From Escherichia coli (GTDB lineage: Bacteria; Pseudomonadota; Gammaproteobacteria; Enterobacterales; Enterobacteriaceae): a stretch of DNA of 64,000 nucleotides. Positions 56,763 through 58,341 of the stretch are shown piece after piece (position 1 is the first letter of the stretch; each line of letters opens with the position of its first letter). Made by a program: the position numbers and the translations under genes. The notes beneath the pieces are model-generated. The model had not been told where the DNA came from. It saw only the letters and a list, made by a program, of their open reading frames with translations, and ran no database searches. Location: NCBI RefSeq assembly GCF_022846255.1, contig NZ_AP025682.1. One strand, 5' to 3'.

Positions 56763-56878
56763 TGGGACCCCCTTTTGATTTCTTGTTTGACACTTGCAGT
56801 TGCCAGACCGCAAGGTGTTTTAACAAATCAAAAGGGGTTTTAATAACTGGCTCAAAGCTGAAAGCTTTCCGGAACCCC

Positions 56879-56889
56879 CAGCCTAGCTG
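56879..56889. repeat. IS4 target-site duplication, left copy (CAGCCTAGCTG)
   Basis: Identical 11-mer immediately flanks both IS4 ends. Confidence 0.8.
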
Positions 56890-58314
56890 TAATGCCAGTC
56901 AGTTAAGCAACTGACTGGCTCTTTTTCGGGGCTGTGGGGTATTTCCAGGGCCTCTCCTTTACCACTCTCGGGAAGGCCCTTTCCCTTCTTGTCGGTAATT
57001 TCACAAGTTGTCCCATACTTGCAAGATCGCGCATCAGCTCCGGTATACGTCCCGGTGAAGCGCCCTGCAATGTCATCAGCATTCTCATCACCATTCCACA
57101 TGATTCTGAGAAACTCAGTTGATTCGGCCAGTAACCTTTCAGATGTTCCGCCATTTTAATCATCTGATATCTCACCAGATTATAAGCCAGTAAGACACCC
57201 CACAGCTCTTGCTCCACAAGCTCCGGTTTTTTACTTCTCAGCGTCAGCCTGCTCAGTTGCATCGTCTGTTTTATCTCCCTGTATCCCAGTTCGATTTCCC
57301 AGCGATGACTGTACAGATCCGCCATTTCTCCTCCGGGGAAGCGCATGGCGTCCGTCATCGACGTCAGCAGATGGCAGACTTTTCCTTTGCGCGTCACGGT
57401 CAGCAGGCGGGCTGTCACTTCATTTCCCAGTCCCGGCCACTTTTTTCGTGCCTGCGGGCTGGTTTTCAGCTTCACCAGATGATCGCCTTTACCCAGTTTT
57501 CTGATCTCTTCATATTGCGCTCCCTTTCTGAGAGGTATCATCCAGTGGCGGTGTTCTCCCGCCAGGCTCCAGGCATTTAACAGTCCCAGTGAGTAATAAC
57601 CTTTATCCATTAACGTCAGAGTGTTATCGCCGGTTTGTTCTATAAGTTGCTCAGCAAGCTCATTTTCGCTGTTCTTCATCGTGCCGAAGGCTGCAGCCGT
57701 CAGCAGATGGCTGGTCAGTTCCATCTGGCAGACCATTTTGACCTGCGGGTAGAGCGCCGGGTTCCCGGCATGTGTCTGGCGGGGGAAGGCTGCATCGTTC
57801 TCTGGTGTATCCGGTGTGCGCCAGAACACACCATCGATGGCCAGCAGGGTCAGGCCGCACCAGTGCGGATGCGGCGTGGCGTTATGCCAGAGCTGCGCTG
57901 TTTTCGTGAACACGCGGCGGACAGCCTCACTTCCCAGGCGCTGGCGGGCCTGAATAACGGCACTGGGGGCAACGAAGGGGCGATTGCCCGGCAGCATGAT
58001 GTCCAGGCGATTCACAATCTGGTGAAGAGGTTCTTTACGCTCAAGCGCCATGCCAACAATACACCAGACCATCATTTCGAGGGGAAGACGGCGCTTGCGT
58101 AGCGTTACAGTACCTGATTCGGCAAGGCAACGAGAGATGAGTTCGGGGTCGAGGTAATCCCCCAGAGAAGTCAGTGGGTTACGCAGAGAATCGTAACGGG
58201 ATACCAGATCAAGAGCCTGTCCAATGTGCATAAAAAAATCCGGAAACAAGTGAGCGTTTCCGGATTCTTACACAGCCACTGGATCGGTCAACTGATCCTT
58301 AACTGATCGGCATT
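56890..58314 (-). mobile_element. IS4 insertion sequence (complete)
   Basis: 1425 bp; 18-bp imperfect terminal inverted repeats TAATGCCAGTCAGTTAAG / TAATGCCGATCAGTTAAG (16/18); full transposase ORF; flanked by an 11-bp direct repeat. Confidence 0.9.
56903..58231 (-). CDS. insG: IS4 transposase (DDE)
   Basis: ORF 56903-58249; start set at [16 protein letters not shown]..., 442 aa, matching the IS4 InsG sequence as I recall it. Confidence 0.92.
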
Positions 58315-58325
58315 ACAGCCTAGCT
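58315..58325. repeat. IS4 target-site duplication, right copy (CAGCCTAGCTG)
   Basis: Identical to 56879-56889. Confidence 0.8.
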
Positions 58326-58341
58326 GGGGGTTTTCTGTGCA

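Follow-up and report, generated by a model that had tools for sequence, protein, structure and literature searches.

The stretch of DNA analysed here, referred to as the window, comprises 64,000 nucleotides of an Escherichia coli contig (NZ_AP025682.1, assembly GCF_022846255.1). Between rne upstream and flgL and flgK downstream (flgL is 99.7% identical to E. coli genomes) it contains a copy of the insertion sequence IS200 that is interrupted close to its left end by a complete copy of the insertion sequence IS4. IS4 is a DDE cut-and-paste element and the type element of the IS4 family. Its hallmarks are a length of about 1426 bp, imperfect terminal repeats of 18 bp, and target duplications of 11-13 bp. 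The copy in the window is 100% identical over its full length to annotated IS4 from many E. coli genomes, and 16 of the 18 positions are identical between its terminal repeats, TAATGCCAGTCAGTTAAG and TAATGCCGATCAGTTAAG. The sole gene of the element encodes a transposase that scores 304.5 bits against the NCBIfam family NF033592 (IS4 family transposase, cut-off 115), and a protein identical to it contains the Pfam domains Nterm_IS4 and DDE_Tnp_1. IS200 elements, in turn, are about 707 bp long and have neither terminal inverted repeats nor target duplications. This is also seen here, as the ends TGTGCACAG... and ...ATATTTATT are unrelated and the flanks of 6-11 copies do not show any repeat. The TnpA protein of the interrupted copy scores 145.9 bits against NF033573 with a cut-off of 55.

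Joining positions 56873-56889 to 58327-58332 across IS4 restores the palindrome AACCCCCAGC-CTA-GCTGGGGGTT, which has a perfect 10-bp stem and a 3-nt loop. A sequence-only reading of the window had already placed IS4 at the centre of a perfect palindrome from 56873 to 58331. Stem and loop stand as described, except that the last paired T is 58332, one base further on. Similarly, the TTTT run that was said to follow the palindrome is present at 58331-58334, but its first two T belong to the stem. The duplicated 11-mer CAGCCTAGCTG had been taken for the core of the palindrome, and it is indeed found in two exact copies that span the loop and the inner stem. It is a palindrome in itself (CAGC-CTA-GCTG) and could thus mimic symmetry, in which case the palindrome would be a coincidence or an artefact of the duplication and irrelevant to the choice of the target. 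We give this practically no chance, because the symmetry runs six nucleotides beyond the duplication on each side, the arm AACCCCCAGC is found within the 64 kb at only these two places, one per strand, compared to 0.12 expected, and the hairpin is otherwise intact in thousands of IS200 copies. Folded as RNA, the restored hairpin reaches -18.7 and -22.3 kcal/mol on the two strands (z = -2.7 and -3.5, respectively). As DNA it reaches -11.7 kcal/mol, with the first percentile of random 40-mers of the window at -9.4 kcal/mol.

The palindrome is the left-end hairpin of IS200, as the earlier reading had presumed. Just outside TGTGCACAG the flanks of 11 IS200 copies diverge, which places the left terminus at about position 58343, and the hairpin therefore corresponds to nucleotides 12-34 of the canonical element. 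After restoration the IS200 copy has about 710 bp (the main body and 58327-58343), and the restored element aligns without gaps and with 99.45% identity over 727 nucleotides to the intact IS200C adjoining ompX in strain E2348/69. In addition, the Rfam family STnc490, which represents the 5' region of Salmonella IS200, opens with aacCcCCaGCUAGGCuGGgGguu, i.e. with the left-end hairpin. The window matches this family with 120.5 bits at a gathering score of 56, although the first six nucleotides of the match are IS4 sequence. The second stem of STnc490, with its arms at 56769-56784 and 56822-56837, sequesters the ribosome-binding site. Nucleotides 12-34 of IS200 have been described as a bidirectional rho-independent terminator that shields the element against impinging transcription (Ellis et al. 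2015, PMC4513863, citing Beuzon et al. 1999). The tnpA transcript starts near nucleotide 40, and a stem of nucleotides 69-138 hides the ribosome-binding site (PMC4513863). IS200 contains a similar hairpin at its right end (-15.9 kcal/mol as RNA), which is on the same strand and has the same fold but differs from the left-end hairpin in two base pairs, with compensatory changes from C-G to T-A and from A-T to G-C. This covariation is consistent with a structure that is recognised by the IS200 transposase.

Table 1. Features of the nested IS4 and IS200 elements (positions in the window).
Feature	Position	Strand	Basis or remark
IS4, complete, 1426 bp	56890..58315	-	100% identity to annotated IS4; terminal repeats and length
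IS4 transposase gene, 442 aa from ATG, stop codon included	56903..58231	-	NCBIfam NF033592
IS4 terminal inverted repeat TAATGCCAGTCAGTTAAG, end distal to transposase start	56890..56907	+	
IS4 terminal inverted repeat TAATGCCGATCAGTTAAG, end adjoining transposase start	58298..58315	-	
IS4 hairpin and T-run, directly upstream of the transposase start codon (insertion spot of IS200 in other genomes)	58234..58269	-	
Target-site duplication, copy 1, CAGCCTAGCTG	56879..56889		exact 11-bp direct repeat
Target-site duplication, copy 2, CAGCCTAGCTG	58316..58326		exact 11-bp direct repeat
Inner half of split hairpin: arm AACCCCCAGC, loop, and 4 nt of the other arm	56873..56889	-	3' part of IS200 nt 12-34
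Outer half of split hairpin; arm GCTGGGGGTT ends at 58332	58316..58332	-	
IS200C main body: right end, tnpA, 5' untranslated region, inner hairpin half	56195..56889	-	99.45% to annotated IS200C; right boundary from 6 copies
Outermost 11 nt of IS200, TGTGCACAGAA in IS200 sense	58333..58343	-	
IS200 tnpA, 152 aa, Y1/HUH transposase, intact, only gene	56304..56762	-	NF033573 transpos_IS200
IS200 5' region matching STnc490; first stem is the split hairpin	56772..56895	-	
IS200 right-end hairpin CCTCCGGC-TAT-GCCGGAGG	56204..56222	-	full sequence AACCTCCGGCTATGCCGGAGGAT
flgL terminator hairpin and T-run; IS200 left end starts directly after the T-run	58348..58376	-	

The same arrangement is found elsewhere in E. 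coli. In a set of 5426 complete genomes, 219 (about 4%) contain the junction of IS200 and IS4 in the orientation of the window, and the sampled members of these belong to a few inherited loci, namely hypT (L001, L164), an IS66/Rpn island (L002, L158, L165), and hisIE-wzzB (L003, L159-L163). The opposite orientation is present at three places, sugE-ecnB, fadL-mlaA, and the plasmid pMS8345B. Including flgL, all seven contexts share the identical 11-bp duplication. The junction of IS4, the IS200 left end and flgL as it is present in the window (58316-58420) was found in none of the 5426 genomes and thus represents a further event. That the IS200 left-end terminator is a recurrent IS4 site is supported by these genomes, and literature searches did not reveal any report of IS4 inserted in IS200. 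An orientation bias, as the 219 versus about three genomes might suggest, was considered and rejected, because the 219 genomes reduce to few inherited loci and the ratio by locus is 4 to 3.

It could be argued that the nested element arose only once or twice and then spread, either through gene conversion between IS200 copies or as a unit of 2.1 kb that the IS200 transposase moves. All four loci of the same orientation agree exactly in junction and duplication, just three inherited loci account for most of the 219 genomes, an IS4-free IS200 was not found at the flgL site in any of the 5426 genomes, and the reverse composite of an IS200 inside IS4, described below, has clearly moved as a unit to two sites. 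However, repeated targeting of an identical site with fixed half-sites results in identical junctions as well. Neither route produces the three loci with IS4 in the opposite orientation, and the IS4 protein variants differ between loci. At hisIE-wzzB, 27 genomes contain an IS200 free of IS4, so that IS200 came first at this locus and IS4 later. It is also hard to reconcile transposition of the unit by IS200 with a left-end hairpin that would already have been split by IS4. A spread from one or two origins is therefore quite improbable, although it may apply to individual loci of the same orientation, including that of the window.

What IS4 recognises can be deduced from 23 distinct IS4 sites outside IS200, where the duplications comprise 11-14 bp with 12 bp being the commonest. 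These sites share a pseudo-palindrome composed of an A-tract, three nucleotides, C...G, three nucleotides, and a T-tract. In the 46 pooled half-sites, A is present at -8, -7, -6, -5, and -4 in 36, 36, 45, 42, and 37 cases, respectively, and the three bases following the A-tract toward the cut are mostly G or C. C is found at +1 in 34 and at +4 in 31 half-sites, while G never appears at +4. This half-site pattern agrees with the classic IS4 consensus AAA-N20-TTT and with a remark by De Palmenaer et al. Strong hairpins centred on the site (DNA folding energies of -9 kcal/mol or below) are formed at 14 of the 23 sites, most of which are terminators between convergent genes, whereas only one of the 124 window sites that fit nothing but AAA-N17-20-TTT forms such a hairpin. 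The survey of further IS4 copies that had been suggested along with the sequence-only reading thus agrees with a preference for palindromic targets. The statement that IS4 chose a hairpin-forming site is incomplete, since seven of the 23 sites do not form any hairpin but have kept the A and T tracts. The conserved feature is the A-tract, located at a constant distance outside each cut, together with C at +1 and +4.

The high proportion of hairpins could also mean that IS4 reads structure, in that the transposase seizes a cruciform or hairpin that has been extruded and cleaves it close to the base. Any stable hairpin would then serve as target, and the length of the duplication would reflect the extruded size. 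Such a mechanism would fit the observations that the duplication always covers the loop and the inner stem and that its length is not constant, an unusual trait among DDE transposases with a fixed stagger. It would also fit the bamD/raiA terminator, where the duplication has 13 or 14 bp depending on a difference of one nucleotide within the hairpin, the flanks being identical. However, in one of the contigs with this insertion (L168, about 1879-1891 and 3413-3426) the two copies of the duplication themselves differ by a one-nucleotide indel, CAGCTCAAGGCTG versus CAGCTCAAGGGCTG. This makes the comparison of 13 with 14 bp a weak one, and duplication lengths taken from single genomes may be off by one. 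The terminators between adhE and tdk, bamD and raiA, and rpoD and mug and the one after eno have been targeted repeatedly, either in both orientations or with the cuts moved by 1-2 nucleotides. Such a wobble of the cuts at one and the same hairpin speaks against the reading of structure. The right-end hairpin of IS200 has the same fold as the left-end hairpin, but no IS4 was found in it among the matches listed (8 of 12 and 8 of 145 high-coverage records obtained with chimeric queries). Its outer side, ...AAATATCCTC, has a T at -5, and one half-site thus lacks the A at this position. Considering this lack of IS4 among the matches listed for the right-end hairpin and the seven sites without hairpin, we favour a symmetric transposase complex that recognises a pseudo-palindromic sequence flanked by A-tracts, and consider structure reading unlikely. 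Hairpin formation would then be a mere correlate, because sequences of this kind occur at terminators.

The IS200 site fits into this pattern. Its half-sites, AGAAAACCCC/CAGC and CCGGAACCCC/CAGC (the slash denotes the cut), both have A at -6 and -5 as well as C at +1 and +4, while neither has the A at -4 that is present in 37 of the 46 half-sites elsewhere. Cuts one base further outward on each side would bring a G to -6 on one half, which may explain the constant 11-bp duplication. The arrangement GAAAA-CCCC/CAGCTAGGCTG/GGGG-TT thus retains in each half the positions that are conserved best, which appears to fix the cuts and to keep the duplication invariant.

The 18-nt pattern of the IS4 ends is also present in at least 12 other genera, namely Pseudoalteromonas, Shewanella, Vibrio, Methylophaga, Vreelandella, Comamonas, Vogesella, Andreprevotia, Legionella, Colwellia, Enterobacter, and Pseudomonas, including short derivatives of 123-215 bp. 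Among the matches listed, 61 of the 74 flanks of these elements contain an A-run at a terminator-type distance, compared to 6.9% of random positions. Pseudomonas sp. ok272 (NZ_FOCB01...) contains about 50 copies of a 145-bp element bounded by exact 18-nt IS4 ends, nearly all of which have a 10-bp duplication, GGGCAAGCCT or AGGCTTGCCC. According to this duplication the element sits at the centre of the palindrome GTAGGAGCGAGGCTTGCCCGCGAA, which resembles a repetitive extragenic palindrome (REP).

Taken together, the locus is very probably the result of two successive insertions, an IS200C copy first and then an IS4 directed into its left-end hairpin by the targeting of A-tract-flanked pseudo-palindromes. 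In the first step, IS200C would have landed immediately behind the T-run of the flgL terminator. Subsequently, an active IS4 would have inserted at the centre of the left-end hairpin, nucleotides 12-34 of IS200. The half-site read by IS4 would consist of an A-tract ending about four nucleotides outside the cut, three mostly G/C bases, the cut, and C-N-S-C, and the two cuts would be made 11-14 bp apart with the interval between them becoming duplicated. In E. coli, sequences of such a form would mostly be rho-independent terminators located between an A-run and a T-run. The most economical assumption is that a transposase dimer contacts the duplex target with two-fold symmetry.

Several points weigh against this interpretation. 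The 23 sites were sampled from about a dozen genomes through contig look-ups with IS4 transposase variants and do not represent a census. The consensus AAA-N20-TTT was reportedly described by Mayaux et al. 1984, and literature searches did not find a text that states it. A simple terminator scan misses the left-end hairpin, because its T-run is short (TTTT on one strand and TT on the other) although the stem is strong, and its terminator activity rests on the literature. At the flgL site, the 5426 genomes do not contain any IS200 at all, and the order of events is thus deduced from other loci. Finally, gene conversion between IS200 copies may have spread the insertion, in which case fewer than seven events could have been independent.

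The arms of the hairpin are now 1437 bp apart, and the claim that the insertion destroys the hairpin is thus literally true. The terminator cannot form any more, and tnpA would have lost its shield against outside transcription. The IS4 transposase gene points in the same direction as tnpA, and the IS4 end on this strand has a hairpin but no U-run. Therefore, IS4 transcripts could read into the 5' untranslated region of IS200. The stem at the ribosome-binding site and the antisense RNA would continue to limit the translation of tnpA (PMC4513863). Subterminal hairpins at both ends are bound by the transposase of IS608, which belongs to the IS200/IS605 family (PMC3201880). By analogy, the recognition hairpin at the left end of IS200 is probably split as well. 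Considering both the binding in IS608 and the covariation of the left and right hairpins, the split IS200 copy is probably immobile.

IS4 and IS200 are also found in the reverse arrangement. An intact IS200 inside IS4 forms a composite of 2137 bp, which is present at fiu (L167, 1275-3411; also L186) and between bamD and raiA (L168, 1892-3412). Here, the left end of IS200 directly adjoins the T-run of the IS4 hairpin just upstream of the IS4 transposase start, corresponding to positions 58230-58240 of the window. Because the composite is found at two chromosomal sites with IS4-type duplications it must have moved as a unit. In addition, IS200 is found on the T-run of the other terminal hairpin of IS4 (GCCAGTCA...TGACTGGC-TCTTTT) in an IS4-like remnant of about 94% identity (L166, 2600-3420, E. 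coli Nissle 1917). This junction of IS200 and the IS4 remnant is widespread and present in 145 records, for example from Nissle 1917 and ST131. It could be imagined that the two elements are a reciprocal pair of terminator seekers, the protective terminator-like hairpin upstream of the transposase gene of each being the preferred landing site of the other, and that IS4 captures the extruded or distorted hairpin. IS4 would then enter the left-end hairpin of IS200, and IS200 would land on the T-runs of the two terminal hairpins of IS4. If this were true, the elements would repeatedly disable or hitch-hike on each other, and hairpin capture would explain why the duplication length floats between 11 and 14 bp. 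We regard this combined scenario as doubtful.

With respect to terminators in general, the left end TGTGCACAG of IS200 starts 0-3 nucleotides past a hairpin and T-run in 10 of 11 distinct contexts. IS200 is located beside terminators and IS4 inside them. Both are seen at the ompX terminator, which IS200 adjoins in E2348/69 and which harbours an IS4 in another genome. On its other side, the IS200 copy of the window is separated from rne by a two-gene module (55391-56175) that resembles toxin-antitoxin systems. The gene for a TacA-like antitoxin (Pfam PF08681, 92.6 bits) overlaps the one for a GNAT acetyltransferase (matching PF13508 and related families). Both small genes adjoining IS200 were matched by Pfam, while NCBIfam did not give a match for either.

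In general, the case represents the known behaviour of two well-known elements and is ordinary in this sense, without a new kind of element or mechanism. The additions are modest and comprise a recurrent site in IS200, a sharper half-site consensus, the contrast between the left and the right hairpin, and the reciprocal nesting. Nevertheless, the locus is a clean natural example of IS4 target choice with a built-in control, because IS200 contains two near-identical hairpins and IS4 was found in only one of them among the matches listed, which points to the flanking A-tracts and not to the hairpin alone. For genome annotation, the recurrent insertion explains the frequent finding of an IS4 transposase adjoining an IS200 tnpA, and such IS200 copies can be marked as probably immobile.

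IS4 reportedly generates duplications of 11-13 bp at targets with the pseudo-palindromic consensus AAA-N20-TTT, including an insertion in the pheS,T attenuator (Habermann et al. 1979; Klaer et al. 1981; Mayaux et al. 1984). The insertion described here has in common with this classic targeting the A- and T-tracts about 17-20 bp apart, the central position of the duplication, and the terminator-type hairpin, with 11 bp being at the short end. It differs in that the target is inside another insertion sequence and that one arm has only TT. Furthermore, duplications of up to 14 bp and the preference for C at +1 and +4 are added to the classic description. Insertion at the centre of palindromes is also known from IS1397 and ISKpn1, which insert in the loops of REP sequences and bacterial interspersed mosaic elements (BIMEs). 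The IS110-family elements ISPpu9 and ISPpu10 insert in Pseudomonas REP sequences. Like IS4 in IS200, these four elements insert at the centre of a repeated non-coding palindrome and spare genes. However, they belong to the IS3 family with DDE transposases or use IS110-family recombinases (RNA-guided in ISPpu10), and their targets are REP sequences instead of A/T-flanked terminators. Nevertheless, REP-like palindromes are also occupied by an element with IS4 ends, the 145-bp element of Pseudomonas sp. ok272. Within the IS4 family, IS186 targets 5'-GGGG(N6/N7)CCCC-3' (PMC5009759). IS186 is likewise a DDE member with palindromic flanks that are not duplicated, a duplicated core of variable length, and few repeatedly used sites, while its flanks are G/C runs and not A/T runs, its core is shorter, and its sites are not terminators. 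The target itself corresponds to the IS200 terminator of nucleotides 12-34 (PMC4513863), which agrees with the restored palindrome in sequence, position, and fold, and which is present at this locus in two separate halves.

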